This document shows, one piece after another, positions 45,228 through 64,000 of a stretch of 64,000 bases of DNA (positions within the stretch are counted from its first letter, which is position 1; every line of letters starts with the position of its first letter). The position numbers and the translations under genes were made by a program. The stretch covers positions 23,992 to 87,991 of the forward strand of contig CAMDFF010000002.1 of the NCBI GenBank assembly GCA_945897315.1, written 5' to 3'. This DNA comes from a candidate division TM6 bacterium UASB124. GTDB lineage: Bacteria > Babelota > Babeliae > Babelales > RVW-14. The notes under the pieces are model-generated. The model was not told where the DNA came from, ran no database searches, and saw only the letters and a list, made by a program, of their open reading frames with translations.

Positions 45228-46034
45228 TTACAGAGGTTTCTTTACGAGTTCAATCATCATAAACCAGCCGCAGCGTTGCCATCCCACCACGCAAGCTAGG
45301 GTGTACGCCAGCCATTGAAACGGTTTAGCTTTGTAATAGAGGAGATCGTGTTTTGTTGCGGGAGCACTTAAGTGCTTAATAGTAACGGGCTGTGAAGCTA
45401 AAAGTTTTTTGATTTCGCTAAAAGTAAACGCTTGAGTACCAAGGCTTTCTTGGTGGTGGTAGAGAACCTTTCTGAATGACTTAAAGGGCTTTCCTTTCAG
45501 AAGTGCATGCGTTAGATATTGGTACAAGGCAAAAAGTGAGTTGCGATTGTAAATCATCAGTTTGATAGTGCCCCCTGGTTTTGCAACTCGAATGAGCTCC
45601 CGTAGTGCTTGCTCGGTATTTGGGGAATGATGAATAACACCCCAAGAATAAACGAGATCAAACATATTTTTTTCATACGGTATAGCCTCTGCATCACCAA
45701 TACAGAGCTCTTTTGCTGCAAGGTCATAGAGCATTAATCGATGGTGTACATGTGCAATAGCCTCTTCCGTTAGGTCAATTCCGTAGGCTTGTGCTCCAGC
45801 GCGAATCCATTGTAAAAAATCAGTACCAGCGCCAACGCCGACTTCAAGAATACGCTTACCATGAAAGCGTGTAAATTGGGCAAATGCAAAAATCTCTGGC
45901 TCTGTGGCATACCGAAATGTCTCAATTGCTTCGAAATATTCTTTAGAGAACTTTTTTAAATTAATAAATTCAGTTCCACATGCTGCAATATTCCAGTATT
46001 TCTTTACCTCTTGTTTAAGAGCCAAGGGGTTCAT
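45228..46034 (-). CDS. class I SAM-dependent methyltransferase
   Basis: Motif I is ILEVGVGAGTD. Post-I and motif II are FDLVYSWGVIHH. Confidence 0.75.
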   Translation of the reverse strand: MNPLALKQEVKKYWNIAACGTEFINLKKFSKEYFEAIETFRYATEPEIFAFAQFTRFHGKRILEVGVGAGTDFLQWIRAGAQAYGIDLTEEAIAHVHHRLMLYDLAAKELCIGDAEAIPYEKNMFDLVYSWGVIHHSPNTEQALRELIRVAKPGGTIKLMIYNRNSLFALYQYLTHALLKGKPFKSFRKVLYHHQESLGTQAFTFSEIKKLLASQPVTIKHLSAPATKHDLLYYKAKPFQWLAYTLACVVGWQRCGWFMMIELVKKPL

Positions 46035-47241
46035 GGTGGTCTCCTTTAAGTATATTTTCGTATAACTGTGCTATTTGGTTACGTTGGTGAAGTAGCGAAA
46101 ATTTTGTTGTGCAATATTCGTAGCCAGCCTGTCCCATTGAGATACGCTTTTGCTGATCGGTTAATAATAAGATAAGTGCGTCAGCCCATGCATCACTATT
46201 ATTATGAGGTATTAATAGTCCGGTGGTCTTGTCAATTACTAGCTCATCTAGTGGTGCCAAGCAAGAAGCAATGACAGGTTTTTTCATGAATCCTGCTTCG
46301 ATGATTGGACGTGCGAAGTGACCAACAGTTGCAGGGAATACAATAATATCAGAAGCGGCCATTGCAGCAGGAATGTCGTTAATGGCACCAAGTAATACTA
46401 CATTTTTTGGGTGCTTGGCTACAACACTGAGTACGTTTGCTATGTAGCGCGATGATGGCGTAAGGTTTATATAGTTATTATCTTTTTGCTCAGGGAAATA
46501 GCCAGCAATAAGAAGTTGTGTGGTCGGCAGCTTTTTAAGCACCTGTTCAAATGCATATAGCAGCGGGAGGGTCCCTTTTTCCCGTGAACAGCCGCCAACA
46601 AAGAGTATTCGTAGGCTATTCTGTAAGTCATATTTCTCGCAAAATTGTTTTTTGTCGCGAGCGCTATCAAATTGCTCTGGGGGAACAGCATTATAAATAA
46701 TCAATAATTTTTTACTGTTGGTCCATGGTAACCCATCATTTTTTGATATGGCGACAATAGTTGTTGCAAAAGTTGCGACGCACCATCGAATAAAATTTTT
46801 ACGTAGTCCATAGTAGCCATCAGCAAGAGGCTCGCGAATATGCCATACGATGGGAATGTGCATGAACCAAGCTGCTGCGCCCCAAGCAATGAGGGAGCTG
46901 GTATTGAGGTGAACCAACGCAGGACGTTCTTTGCGGTATATTTTAGGGGCTATAATAAAAAAAGTAATAATAGTGTGAATAATAGCCCTACACACATGGT
47001 GTGGATGATACCACCTAAACCACCAAATTTTAGTGTGTGCAAAATCATACCAGCCTATAGGGCCTACGGTGGGAATATTATTTTTCTTAAAAAGATCACA
47101 TGCTGCAGAATTATGCAAAAAAACTACAACAGGCCTGTAAAGCTGCCAAGATAGTTGCTGCACGAGATACAATAAACTAAGTGGAGCACCGCCAAGCCCT
47201 TTACCATGATGAATGAAAAGAATCTTCTTCTGGTGCTCCAT
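46015..47241 (-). CDS. glycosyltransferase, GT4-like
   Basis: MEHQKKILFIHHGKGLGGAPLSL, and a C-terminal GT-B half (FPATVGHFARPIIEAGFMKKPVIAS). I moved the start from 47325 to avoid overlapping ugd. Confidence 0.7.
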   Translation of the reverse strand: MEHQKKILFIHHGKGLGGAPLSLLYLVQQLSWQLYRPVVVFLHNSAACDLFKKNNIPTVGPIGWYDFAHTKIWWFRWYHPHHVCRAIIHTIITFFIIAPKIYRKERPALVHLNTSSLIAWGAAAWFMHIPIVWHIREPLADGYYGLRKNFIRWCVATFATTIVAISKNDGLPWTNSKKLLIIYNAVPPEQFDSARDKKQFCEKYDLQNSLRILFVGGCSREKGTLPLLYAFEQVLKKLPTTQLLIAGYFPEQKDNNYINLTPSSRYIANVLSVVAKHPKNVVLLGAINDIPAAMAASDIIVFPATVGHFARPIIEAGFMKKPVIASCLAPLDELVIDKTTGLLIPHNNSDAWADALILLLTDQQKRISMGQAGYEYCTTKFSLLHQRNQIAQLYENILKGDHHEPLGS

Positions 47242-47251
47242 AAAAATTGCC

Positions 47252-62173: not shown

Positions 62174-62341
62174 TCAGAATCTCCTTTTGTAAGGGGTTGC
62201 CTTTTATCCGTTGGTATGTACGGTATTATATAGTAGTAGCTTAGGCTTAAGACAGTAGTACATATTTCTAAACGGCGATAGGTATAGCTTTTTTAAAACT
62301 GAAGTAGGTGAGAAAATGATGCCAGTAGAAGGAGAAAGATT

Positions 62342-64000
62342 GTGAAAAATATATGCAGGAACATCTTGTTTATAGGGTTTCTTTTAGTATGGTTGCAGGT
62401 GTTTTCAAATATTCCGGTGACGCTTTCAGTTCGCCAATTATGTGACTTGGAGCTTATTTTAAATGAGGGATTTGCTCCGCTGAAAGGCTTCATGAATAAG
62501 TCTGATTATAATGGTGTTATTGAGCATATGAGACTTGCTGATGGGACGTTGTGGCCTATGCCCATTACGCTGGACGTTGGCGAAGAAGTGGTGTCGCAAC
62601 TAAAAGAAGATGATGTTTTATCATTGAAATCTGTTGAAGGTGATGTGATAGCGATTATGGCGGTAGAAGAAGTATGGCAACCAGACAAAAATAACGAAGC
62701 ACTGAAGGTCTATGGTACTCAGGACATTTTGCATTCAGGGGTAGAGTATCTTCTTCATAAAACAAAACCATTTTATGTTGGTGGCTCAGTTATTAAAGTT
62801 GCCCTTCCTCAGCACTATGATTTTGCAGAGTTGCGCAAGACGCCAACAGTCCTGAAACAAGAGCTTGCTGCGCGTGGAATAAAAAGAGTTGTTGCCTTTC
62901 AAACCCGCAACCCCATGCATCGTGCACATGTAGAATTAACCACACGTGCTGCAAAACAGGCAGATGCTCATTTATTAGTTCATCCCGTGGTAGGGCTTAC
63001 CAAGCCTGGCGATGTCGATCATTTTACTCGTGTTCGTTGTTATAAAAAACTCATGAAACATTACCCTGAACGGACAGCAACACTCGCTGTGCTGCCACTT
63101 GCTATGCGTATGGCTGGCCCTCGAGAGGCTCTGTGGCATGCGATTATTCGTAAAAACTATGGTGCGACACATTTTATTGTTGGTCGCGATCATGCTGGTC
63201 CTGGTAAAGATAGCAAAGGGGTTCCTTTCTATGGTCCGTATGATTCGCAAGCAGTAGTGGCACGCTATGCTCAAGAGTTGGGGATCGAGGTATTGCCATT
63301 CAGTGAGATGGTATATGTGCCCCAGGGCGACGTGTATCGCAGTGTGGATGAGCTTGCTCCAGGGTCGAAAACCATGTCAATCTCAGGAACAGAATTGAGA
63401 GACTTGCTGCGTGATGGCAAGGAAATTCCAGCATGGTTTACCTATCCTGAGGTGGTTGAAGAATTGCGCGTTAGTTATCCTCCACGTGATAAGCAAGGGT
63501 TCACCATTTTCTTTACTGGTCTTTCTGGGGCAGGCAAAACAACAATTACCAATGCGCTGGCACTTAAATTGATGGAAATGCAAGATCGTCGTATATCGAT
63601 TCTTGATGGAGATGAAGTGCGTAAGCATTTGTCTTCTGAACTTGGTTTTTCTAAAGAGCATCGTTCTCTGAATATTCGTCGTGTTGGATTTGTTGCTAAC
63701 GAAATTACGAAAAATGGTGGGATTGCCTTGTGTGCATTTGTTTCACCATACAATGCAGATCGTGATTATGACCGAAAGCTCATAGGTAATTTCATTGAAG
63801 TCCATGTGTCTACACCGCTTGAGGTGTGTGAGCAGCGTGATATCAAAGGCCTCTACAAAAAAGCTCGTGAAGGCAAGATACCAATGTTTACGGGCATTTC
63901 AGATCCTTATGAAGCGCCGATCAATCCTGAAATTACCATTGATACAGCTACAACATCTGTACAAGAAGCTATTAATGTGATCATACAACATCTTAAAAAA
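62342..64000 (+). CDS. sat-cysC: bifunctional sulfate adenylyltransferase (ATP sulfurylase) / adenylylsulfate (APS) kinase, 3'-truncated by the window edge
   Basis: Not in the ORF track because there is no stop before 64000. The frame stays open from the TGA at 62309. GTG 62342 is preceded by AGGAGAAAG. Motifs: RQLCDLELILNEGFAPLKGFM, VAFQTRNPMHRAH, HFIVGRDHAG, then FTGLSGAGKTT and FVSPY (APS kinase). The start could also be TTG or GTG up to about 62399. Confidence 0.9.
   Translation, partial: MKNICRNILFIGFLLVWLQVFSNIPVTLSVRQLCDLELILNEGFAPLKGFMNKSDYNGVIEHMRLADGTLWPMPITLDVGEEVVSQLKEDDVLSLKSVEGDVIAIMAVEEVWQPDKNNEALKVYGTQDILHSGVEYLLHKTKPFYVGGSVIKVALPQHYDFAELRKTPTVLKQELAARGIKRVVAFQTRNPMHRAHVELTTRAAKQADAHLLVHPVVGLTKPGDVDHFTRVRCYKKLMKHYPERTATLAVLPLAMRMAGPREALWHAIIRKNYGATHFIVGRDHAGPGKDSKGVPFYGPYDSQAVVARYAQELGIEVLPFSEMVYVPQGDVYRSVDELAPGSKTMSISGTELRDLLRDGKEIPAWFTYPEVVEELRVSYPPRDKQGFTIFFTGLSGAGKTTITNALALKLMEMQDRRISILDGDEVRKHLSSELGFSKEHRSLNIRRVGFVANEITKNGGIALCAFVSPYNADRDYDRKLIGNFIEVHVSTPLEVCEQRDIKGLYKKAREGKIPMFTGISDPYEAPINPEITIDTATTSVQEAINVIIQHLKK

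Follow-up and report, generated by a model that had tools for sequence, protein, structure and literature searches.

The 64,000 nucleotides analyzed here (the window), taken from contig CAMDFF010000002.1 of the candidate division TM6 bacterium UASB124 (assembly GCA_945897315.1), cover the left two-thirds of a glycan gene island of ~27 kb and 26 genes, which runs from window position 45228 to ~71990. We place its limits there because, according to gene calls on the source contig, the glycan genes go on for ~8 kb past the window edge, as far as a gene for a DUF1796 papain-like protein, and are followed by a ribonucleotide reductase gene that lies outside the island. The island encodes 12 glycosyltransferases, three ATP-grasp ligases, one HAD-type phosphatase, one methyltransferase and one sulfotransferase, together with what is, by sequence, the capacity to make UDP-glucuronic acid (UDP-GlcA), UDP-xylose (UDP-Xyl) and the sulfate donor 3'-phosphoadenosine 5'-phosphosulfate (PAPS). 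It falls into two parts. The ten genes from the methyltransferase to the UDP-glucuronate decarboxylase UXS (part A, 45228-54289) lack any genuine N-terminal hydrophobic segment, and all 15 genes from the first ATP-grasp gene (54279) rightwards (part B) begin with a hydrophobic, Sec-like one. The original prediction, made from the sequence alone, had described a glycan locus of ~19 kb; the genes it listed are all present at the coordinates it gave, while the ATP-grasp and HAD genes (54279-58770), the ~8-kb extension and the signal sequences were missing from it.

Enzymes of the island

The supply of nucleotide sugars read from the locus by the original prediction is borne out. All three UDPG_MGDP_dh domains of Ugd match (PF03721, PF00984 and PF03720, at 194, 121 and 101 bits), the catalytic motif GGSCFPKD is in place, and the protein scores 461 bits against the TuaD model and 430 bits against the TIGR03026 nucleoside diphosphate (NDP)-sugar dehydrogenase subfamily (cutoff, 190); by these matches, Ugd makes UDP-GlcA. 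The product of 53348-54289 aligns end to end with human UXS1 (4gll, 2b69; 372 bits, E 1e-110), and its motifs GAAGFLGS, STSEVYG and YDEGKR line up with residues of 4gll. Because the next-best short-chain dehydrogenase/reductase (SDR) in the PDB, a UDP-glucose 4-epimerase, reaches only 154 bits, the protein groups with UXS1 rather than with 4-epimerases or 4,6-dehydratases, and on sequence we identify it as a genuine UXS making UDP-Xyl. Pfam also recovers the seven glycosyltransferases that had been counted in the window (five GT4, one CgeB-like and one GT2), and the predicted S-adenosylmethionine (SAM)-dependent methyltransferase matches Methyltransf_11.

A sulfation module lies at the right-hand edge of the window, where genes for the sulfotransferase and for a fused ATP sulfurylase/adenosine 5'-phosphosulfate (APS) kinase, the PAPS synthase Sat/CysC, diverge across a 168-bp spacer. 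Both assignments of the original prediction hold, including that of the PAPS-binding loops. The sulfotransferase passes the Sulfotransfer_1 gathering score, and its motifs PKCGTH (5'-phosphosulfate-binding [PSB] loop), SHWPY (catalytic His), IRDPRAMLVS (3'-phosphate-binding loop) and FREGKTDGWKKLF align with those of SULTs; a C-terminal GxxGxW/K motif is present, and P47, K48, G50, H129, R152, S160, G283 and W288 are invariant in a 42-member alignment. The top 50 Foldseek matches of its AlphaFold2 model (pLDDT 90.6) and all 28 profile matches are cytosolic SULTs, plant SOTs or retinol dehydratase. Against the PDB, the family profile reaches SULT7A1 at E 4e-12, and this profile is needed for significance, as a single-sequence search gives weak matches (best E 0.017). 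Profile and predicted fold alike identify a PAPS-dependent enzyme of the cytosolic SULT type and not of the Golgi carbohydrate type, which acts on heparan, chondroitin or keratan sulfate (HS, CS or KS), so that the label "carbohydrate-type" given earlier has to be dropped. The signal-bearing SULT-like family is expanded in some metagenome-assembled genomes (MAGs), with at least seven paralogues on a 264,918-bp contig, four on one of 155,104 bp and four on one of 18,612 bp, an expansion that suggests many distinct sulfation targets.

Sat/CysC matches NF004040 at 834 bits (cutoff, 669), the match beginning at query residue 26 and model position 36, and the motifs QTRNPMH, GRDHAG, GLSGAGKT, DGD and FVSP are intact. 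Where the canonical cytoplasmic N-terminus, LIxPHGGxLVDL, would be expected, there is a hydrophobic signal-like segment instead. The same replacement is seen in 93 of the 120 nearest PAPS synthases, in which the segment stops just before the conserved (S/T)LTLTxRQLCDLEL. In a coarse clustering by identity, these signal-type synthases fall together (identity averages 0.65 within the group and 0.59 to canonical forms), with all catalytic motifs kept. A cysteine-assimilation regulon, raised in the original prediction as a possible setting for the gene, was not found: no cysH, cysI or cysJ lies next to sat-cysC, whose neighbors are the sulfotransferase gene and a GT2 gene, then GT10, GT2, GT4 and other genes.

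Three paralogues of ~410 aa (AG1, AG2 and AG3; 22-32% mutual identity) have no Pfam match, ATPgrasp_ST (PF14397) included, and structural modeling identifies them as ATP-grasp ligases. The AlphaFold2 model of AG2, made with 40 homologues (pLDDT 93.3), retrieves eukaryotic glutathione synthetases, DcsG, Ddl and the glutathionylspermidine synthetase GspS in Foldseek with probability 1.0, at TM-scores of only ~0.4. K261 (in VIKP), D61, E73 and R335 do not vary within the family; of 40 relatives, eight give weak matches to ATPgrasp_ST (best 8e-10) and YheCD; and the only PDB sequence match of the family profile is TTLL7. An exhaustive profile search sizes the family at no fewer than 823 clusters at 50% identity; no Pfam model reached threshold. 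Residues 54-76 of AG2, and likewise of AG1 and AG3, contain an invariant hairpin, D61-x-K63...E73-x-G75 ("ADVKYDHGTFKIVECGDG"), which resembles the Mg-binding "D...E-x-N" hairpin that usually closes an ATP-grasp domain; none follows the C-terminal strands. Eukaryotic glutathione synthetases are permuted ATP-grasps. Since the hairpin is N-terminal and these synthetases are the top structural matches, the island ligases, too, appear to be circularly permuted, with the Mg-binding hairpin moved to the N-terminus. One relative of the family, P0037, is an ATP-grasp-GT2 fusion. The HAD-type phosphatase carries motif I as D60-I-D62-N-T64 (DIDNT) and motif IV as FFDD, behind the signal sequence LIIPTPIQA/IITK.

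Signal sequences, operon linkage and relatives

The hydrophobic segments of part B share a layout of a Lys/Arg n-region, a hydrophobic core of 10 to 16 residues and often a small-x-small motif, as in LLHA/D of the sulfotransferase, PIQA/I of the HAD protein and YCA/A of the DUF1796 protein. They lie upstream of the catalytic domains; the GT2 domain, for example, begins at residue 71, and the PSB loop of the sulfotransferase is at residue 47. Elsewhere in the window, a crude hydrophobicity filter flags ~25% of the ORFs. Signals are kept in 36 of 48 and 111 of 143 ATP-grasp homologues and in 103 of 120 sulfotransferases, their character being conserved and not their sequence. The n-region carries a net charge of +1.6 to +2.3, with a negative C-flank in the ATP-grasps and Sat/CysC, a sequence pattern that predicts an N-in/C-out orientation for these proteins. 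From such heuristics of hydrophobicity, charge and conservation we infer Sec-type export of the part B enzymes.

Translation starts bear on this point. The GTG of Sat/CysC at 62342 and the ATG of the sulfotransferase at 62173 each have a canonical Shine-Dalgarno sequence (AGGAG and AAGGAG, respectively) 7 nt upstream, and for this reason the signal-bearing starts of both are probably real. The start of GT4e is doubtful because the first ~70 annotated codons cross a palindromic dispersed repeat (window 58841-58965; arms CGCTCACCCTGAGC and GCTCAGGGTGAGCG, 97 nt apart), which is translated there as "...AHPEPVEWA..."; the annotated start is probably miscalled, and the real one may lie near 58995. 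One arm recurs at 22834-22859 and 30031-30056, the 26-mer occurring three times in the window against none expected, and the element resembles those of the repetitive extragenic palindrome (REP) or miniature inverted-repeat transposable element (MITE) type. At ~31118-31295, the ENA assembly of the same sample is split into k141_1980060 and k141_4001516, which overlap by ~178 bp, and the NCBI/Logan version is a single contig of 161,277 bp; the ENA join falls ~1 kb from the repeat copy at 30031.

Eleven genes, in the order HAD, AG2, AG1, UXS, GT4d, CgeB-like, GT4c, GT4b, Ugd, GT4a and methyltransferase, run along the minus strand with gaps of at most 31 bp or with overlaps, AG1 overlapping the UXS start by 11 nt and the GT4d start overlapping the UXS stop by 4 nt. 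Because they form one tight operon, exported-type and cytoplasmic-type genes are cotranscribed. Synteny in relatives, to which the original prediction had looked for support, is conserved: in related MAGs the ATP-grasp, DUF2608, GT2-family, UXS and Ugd genes stay together, and across 23 genomic loci searched by tblastn, the ATP-grasp family travels with the signal-bearing GT2s, a family with four members in the island, and often also with Ugd or UXS. One such locus, L003, has the order DUF2608, ATP-grasp, ATP-grasp, UXS, GT4, CgeB, methyltransferase, GT4, GT4, Ugd, and the DUF2608 HAD gene is syntenic with ATP-grasps there and in two further loci (L005 and L006). The sulfation module is more variable among relatives, being absent from the 21 kb shown of L003, and many MAG contigs hold ATP-grasp genes together with several sulfotransferase paralogues and Sat/CysC.

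Two related loci deserve mention of their own. On a 3.1-Mb contig (L028; ENA ERZ25039523 contig_17084, 5162-11725), a signal-bearing Sat/CysC lies beside a signal-bearing Sulfotransfer_1 protein, a GT2, a 199-aa protein of unknown function and an Fcl-like SDR, the last of which also has a signal sequence. This larger genome is probably Chlamydiae-like, a close homologue being named Parachlamydia sp., and because it carries the exported-type sulfation and glycosylation set, the set is not confined to Dependentiae. On a 34,657-bp JGI contig, Sat/CysC and three tandem sulfotransferase paralogues adjoin two proteins matching RXYLT1_C, with a GT10 and three GT2s also present. In eukaryotes, RXYLT1_C forms the C-terminal domain of the ribitol-phosphate xylosyltransferase that works in the dystroglycan pathway, and its presence hints at eukaryote-like xylosylation chemistry in such islands. 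The 304-aa protein of our island (unk304) has no Pfam family, and a link from it to these RXYLT1_C proteins could not be made.

Table 1. Genes of the island in window coordinates; the last seven follow, in this order, beyond the window edge
Gene	Coordinates	Strand	Assignment	N-terminus
SAM methyltransferase	45228-46034	-	Methyltransf_11, 69.5 bits; last gene of the 11-gene minus-strand operon	not hydrophobic
GT4a	46015-47325	-	Glycos_transf_1, 81 bits; start probably an internal Met (MEHQKK...)	cytoplasmic type
Ugd, UDP-glucose 6-dehydrogenase	47252-48643	-	three UDPG_MGDP_dh domains	
GT4b	48656-49822	-	Glycos_transf_1, 122.7 bits	cytoplasmic type
GT4c	49819-51102	-	Glycos_transf_1, 111.7 bits	cytoplasmic type
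CgeB-like GT-B enzyme	51116-52276	-	Glyco_trans_1_2 (PF13524) only, 87 bits; called gene 370 aa	cytoplasmic type
GT4d	open reading frame (ORF) 52179-53420; called gene 52179-53351 (390 aa)	-	Glycos_transf_1, 110.8 bits, and Glyco_transf_4	cytoplasmic type
UXS, UDP-glucuronate decarboxylase	53348-54289	-	human UXS1 match	
AG1	54279-55535	-	ATP-grasp; 32% identical to AG2; weak Ddl match	hydrophobic segment
AG2	55567-56817	-	ATP-grasp; AlphaFold2-modeled paralogue	signal sequence
DUF2608 HAD-type phosphatase	56839-57516	-	PF11019, 65.7 bits; first gene of the minus-strand operon	signal sequence
AG3	57559-58770	+	ATP-grasp; 22% identical to AG1, shared invariant columns; divergent from HAD gene	hydrophobic
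GT4e	58767-60182	+	Glyco_trans_1_4, 107.8 bits	transmembrane-like hydrophobic segment, residues 72-92
GT2a	60204-61157	+	Glycos_transf_2, 68 bits	signal sequence, MKFKWLLYVFLGLSISVVFTVCC
Sulfotransferase	61208-62173	-	Sulfotransfer_1, 31.5 bits (gathering score 22)	signal MKLKSHILLLLQLFTAGTLLHA/D
Sat/CysC (PAPS synthase)	62342 to 15 nt past 64000	+	NF004040; PUA_2, ATP-sulfurylase and APS_kinase domains	signal-like segment
GT2b				hydrophobic segment
GT10			62 bits to H. pylori alpha-1,3-fucosyltransferase	hydrophobic segment
GT2c				hydrophobic segment
GT4				hydrophobic segment
unk304			304 aa	hydrophobic segment
GT2d				hydrophobic segment
DUF1796			papain-like	hydrophobic segment

Relatives of the ATP-grasps, sulfotransferase and PAPS synthase that have names are MAGs labeled "Candidatus Dependentiae," "Candidatus Babeliales" or "candidate division TM6," with a few labeled Chlamydiae or Parachlamydia; for one ATP-grasp, the nearest relative with a name is classified with UASB124. 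By these relatives, the source is an uncultured intracellular member of the Dependentiae (TM6), an origin missing from the original prediction. Dependentiae are host dependent, lack amino-acid biosynthesis, take up host ATP via ATP/ADP translocases and all have a type II secretion system (T2SS); lipopolysaccharide (LPS) genes are absent from most Babeliales and kept in the UASB124/340 lineage (PMC4776705). Because that lineage retains them, the LptF/G-like genes of the window (35999-38353) agree with the UASB124-classified relative. A giant-virus or phage origin was tried as an explanation and rejected, as IMG/VR gave no relative of the ATP-grasps and, for the sulfotransferase, only two weak ones; a BFVD fold search returned distant TTL and Ddl proteins only.

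Elsewhere the window encodes RpoD, DnaG, Lgt, MurG, NhaC-type transporters, MlaD, GlmM, HtrA, PssA and GrpE, and an Rfam scan of its entire length gave zero matches. A group of T2SS/type IV pilus (T4P) genes at 20975-27507 (GspF/PilC-like, a pseudopilin and several unannotated signal-bearing ORFs, then an MlaD-domain protein) might give the signal-bearing island enzymes a way across the outer membrane. Several other features stand apart from it. An inorganic-carbon pump pair of DabA (673 bits) and a DabB-like protein (Proton_antipo_M) at 15911-19510 would not be expected in a heterotroph that depends on a host and has a reduced metabolism. Two AAA_14 and DUF4143 ATPase paralogues (32006-33211 and 39376-40761) bracket a LysE/GlmM/DUF502/LptF-G block, and an S24-HTH repressor of the LexA/CI-like kind lies at 31225-31896. 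Pfam-less, signal-bearing ORFs of 250 to 440 aa (6676-7593, 7732-8490, 19684-20823, 28171-29484 and 37184-38353) are lineage specific and of exported type.

Where the glycan is assembled and tailored

The identities of the enzymes, their cofactor motifs, their linkage in an operon, the synteny and signals that are both present and conserved are our starting points, and we propose a model that adds to these export itself, a source of donors, a substrate for each enzyme, and an acceptor and structure for the glycan. In it, a glycan would be assembled in the cytoplasm and then tailored outside it with host-derived ATP, sulfate and nucleotide sugars, a reading in which our confidence is evenly balanced. 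Ugd and UXS of part A would supply UDP-GlcA and UDP-Xyl in the cytoplasm; four GT4s and the CgeB-like GT-B enzyme would build an oligosaccharide at the cytoplasmic face on a membrane acceptor, for which a lipid A-core-like lipid or polyprenol are candidates; and the methyltransferase would methylate it. Part B would act in the periplasm, at the bacterial surface or, once secreted by the type II system, in the host vacuole, where host ATP, sulfate and nucleotide sugars may be within reach of an ATP-importing energy parasite. Such chemistry outside the membrane would be feasible only because the periplasm of an energy parasite must already see host ATP. There, by analogy with Cj1438 and Cj1435 of Campylobacter jejuni, the three ATP-grasps would amidate a uronic-acid carboxylate, probably that of GlcA, with a phosphorylated amine, and the HAD enzyme would then strip the phosphate, an idea supported by the C. 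jejuni-like clustering of genes and by the P0037 fusion. Four GT2s, two GT4s, the GT10 fucosyltransferase and the SULT-type sulfotransferase with its own PAPS synthase would complete the tailoring, giving a sulfated, acidic or amidated surface glycan with xylose and fucose.

Several points weigh against this proposal. Without a transporter, of which no sign was seen, the products of cytoplasmic Ugd and UXS have no way to exported transferases. A link between parts A and B is likewise missing: neither the 26 island genes, including those beyond the right edge, where the original prediction had suggested looking, nor the annotated genes elsewhere in the window were found to encode a flippase, a polymerase, an ABC exporter or an initiating phosphoglycosyltransferase. 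Charge asymmetry is weak in the sulfotransferases, with the N-flank exceeding the C-flank in only 55 of 103, and the export heuristics yield false positives on Rossmann N-termini, as with MurG and Ugd. The ATP-grasps are not TupA-like, and TTLL7, their sole PDB sequence match, is a protein-modifying ligase. A source of the phosphorylated amine is also missing, as no aminotransferase or decarboxylase, the pyridoxal phosphate (PLP) enzymes that would yield ethanolamine phosphate or serinol phosphate in the manner of Cj1436/1437, was found in the island. Finally, sulfation of a glycan is here a prediction from genes.

A rival reading is a conventional cytoplasmic pathway for a polysaccharide or LPS glycan, in which the bacterium's own ATP, PAPS and nucleotide sugars are used, export proceeds via MsbA/Lpt or an exporter encoded elsewhere, and the hydrophobic N-termini tether enzymes to the cytoplasmic face near a lipid-linked acceptor or are in some cases start artifacts. 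Cytoplasmic Ugd and UXS share an operon with signal-bearing genes, LptF/G-like genes are at hand in the window, the annotated GT4e N-terminus is unreliable where it crosses the repeat, and about half of the sulfotransferases show no clear charge bias. Bacteria moreover offer no precedent for Leloir transferases or PAPS-dependent enzymes in the periplasm, the known periplasmic sulfotransferases being PAPS-independent arylsulfate sulfotransferases (ASSTs) (PMC10932419). We nevertheless consider this pathway rather unlikely. Short cores, positive n-regions, acidic C-flanks and frequent small-x-small motifs predict N-in/C-out export rather than an N-out tether; the signals are conserved in hundreds of homologues from three unrelated enzyme families and absent from the ten part A genes; Shine-Dalgarno sequences back the long starts; and Sat/CysC has the signal where a conserved structural N-terminus would normally be. 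A different use of export, to which we assign a lower probability still, is that part B constitutes a set of host-directed effectors, secreted via the T2SS to glycosylate, sulfate or amino-acylate host molecules, for instance glycans or proteins of the vacuole membrane, with part A alone making a bacterial surface sugar. The T2SS is conserved in Dependentiae (PMC4776705), with T2SS/T4P genes in the window; the SULT type is one that acts on small molecules or peptides; TTLL7, the match of the ATP-grasp profile, is a tubulin polyglutamylase; three to seven sulfotransferase paralogues per contig recall the expansions frequent in effector families; and the papain-like DUF1796 gene and, in relatives, ankyrin genes lie nearby. 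Set against these are the translational coupling of HAD, AG2 and AG1 to UXS and GT4 genes in one operon, the fusion of an ATP-grasp to a GT2 in P0037 and the tight synteny with Ugd and UXS across MAGs, which favors a single glycan pathway.

The two remaining alternatives concern the product and not the compartment. The original prediction envisaged a sulfated glycan containing xylose and uronic acid, perhaps proteoglycan-like, and the first half of that idea survives in the coupling of UDP-GlcA, UDP-Xyl, PAPS and a sulfotransferase. A mimic of a glycosaminoglycan (GAG) or proteoglycan linker, in which a backbone resembling heparosan, chondroitin or Xyl-Gal-Gal-GlcA would afterward be sulfated, could draw on this encoded supply and on the related island with two RXYLT1_C-matching proteins, and yet it seems very improbable. 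There is no GT7, GT14, GT31, GT43, GT47 or GT64, nor a GT2 of the HAS/KfoC/PmHS type, only GT4, GT2 and GT10 models finding a match; against chondroitin synthase GT2a scores just 22.6 bits, and against heparosan synthase 19 bits; the island has no UDP-GlcNAc/UDP-GalNAc epimerase; and the sulfotransferase matches cytosolic SULTs, not HS or CS sulfotransferases. As to assimilatory sulfate reduction to cysteine, with Sat/CysC near glycan genes by chance, fusions of this kind do occur in assimilatory contexts of free-living bacteria, and canonical cytoplasmic forms are among the matches. We set this explanation aside as having almost no likelihood, given the lack of adjacent cysH, cysI or cysJ, the sulfotransferase and glycosyltransferases that flank Sat/CysC here and in relatives, the absence of amino-acid biosynthesis from Dependentiae (PMC4776705), the need of the sulfotransferase for precisely what an APS kinase makes, and the signal sequence on the enzyme.

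Returning to tailoring outside the cytoplasm, a broader form of the proposal, which we put forward tentatively and with less confidence than the model itself, is that protist-dwelling bacteria, namely Dependentiae and apparently some Chlamydiae-like ones, possess a Golgi-like tailoring compartment outside the cytoplasm, in which exported PAPS synthases, SULTs, ATP-grasps and Leloir glycosyltransferases work in the periplasm or the host vacuole with host ATP, sulfate and nucleotide sugars, which would be found there because the cell is an energy parasite. If so, bacteria would here show for the first time PAPS synthesis outside the cytoplasm and envelope decoration that depends on ATP or NDP-sugars, and the ATP-grasp family would be a new class of exported amidoligases. 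Working signals would overturn the rule that confines ATP-, PAPS- and nucleotide-sugar-dependent steps to the bacterial cytoplasm, and would mean that energy parasites exploit host metabolites for envelope building besides energy. That intracellular bacteria display sulfated, host-like glycans is an old idea, on which an exported PAPS synthase and sulfotransferase would bear as a concrete gene set. Our literature search found no paper joining Dependentiae with a sulfotransferase, nothing specific on Dependentiae glycosyltransferases and no report of exported PAPS-dependent enzymes; within that search, no single island of signal-bearing PAPS synthase, SULT-type sulfotransferase, ATP-grasps and Leloir transferases is described. 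The extracytoplasmic reading, if verified, would come close to being categorically new. Two sizeable uncharacterized families, the exported-type ATP-grasps and the exported-type SULT-like sulfotransferases, are defined here, and should export prove wrong, the locus remains the first sulfated-glycan island to be described from Dependentiae, a phylum regarded as having a degenerate envelope.

Comparison with known systems

A sulfotransferase accompanied by its own PAPS synthase in a glycan cluster is already known, as is the combined logic of Ugd, ATP-grasp, HAD and GT2 from C. jejuni. Rhizobial NodH/NodPQ and Xanthomonas RaxST/RaxPQ, which serve Nod factor and RaxX sulfation, follow the same rule of a sulfotransferase with a dedicated PAPS supply. 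So do the sulfated capsules of marine Vibrio and Cobetia, in which a PAPS sulfotransferase likewise lies by its own ATP sulfurylase/APS kinase amid glycosyltransferase and nucleotide-sugar genes (PMC11641403, PMC11766843). Systems of these types work in the cytoplasm and include Wzx/Wzy or ABC genes for export, whereas the island has no exporter, its PAPS synthase, sulfotransferase and half of its transferases carry export signals, and its bearers, the Dependentiae, are host dependent.

The likeness to the glucuronamide module of the C. jejuni HS:2 capsule lies in the clustering of Ugd, ATP-grasp, HAD and GT2 genes, here within 47252-61157 and there as Cj1441 (Ugd), Cj1438 and Cj1435 (PMC11800379). 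In HS:2, the TupA-like ATP-grasp domain of the GT2 fusion Cj1438 couples ethanolamine phosphate or serinol phosphate to GlcA, and the HAD enzyme Cj1435 removes the phosphate (PMC11800379). The island ATP-grasps differ in belonging to another, Pfam-less family weakly related to ATPgrasp_ST, YheCD and TTL, in numbering three paralogues, all with signals, and in having no PLP enzymes for an amine donor beside them in the island.

In the eukaryotic Golgi, N-anchored GT10 enzymes and sulfotransferases act apart from the compartment in which precursors are made, PAPS and most nucleotide sugars being cytosolic and imported by transporters. The island resembles this arrangement in its GT10, its Sulfotransfer_1 protein and a UXS that aligns end to end with the human enzyme; it departs from it in that the PAPS synthase itself bears a signal, the Sat-CysC domain order is bacterial and no transporter was found.

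A precedent is Chlamydia trachomatis, which secretes its glycogen enzymes; in the lumen of the inclusion, these draw on UDP-glucose that has been imported (PMC4829429). The shared idea is that nucleotide-sugar enzymes of an intracellular bacterium work outside its own cytoplasm and are fed by the host, with export being predicted in the case of the island. C. trachomatis differs in relying on type III secretion and not Sec, in making a storage glucan and in having no sulfation, ATP-grasp ligation or PAPS synthesis (PMC4829429). Sec or Tat signal peptides on bacterial sulfotransferases are themselves known from the ASSTs of gut bacteria; those enzymes are PAPS-independent beta-propellers, whereas the island protein has a predicted PAPS-binding SULT fold and is encoded beside a PAPS synthase (PMC10932419).

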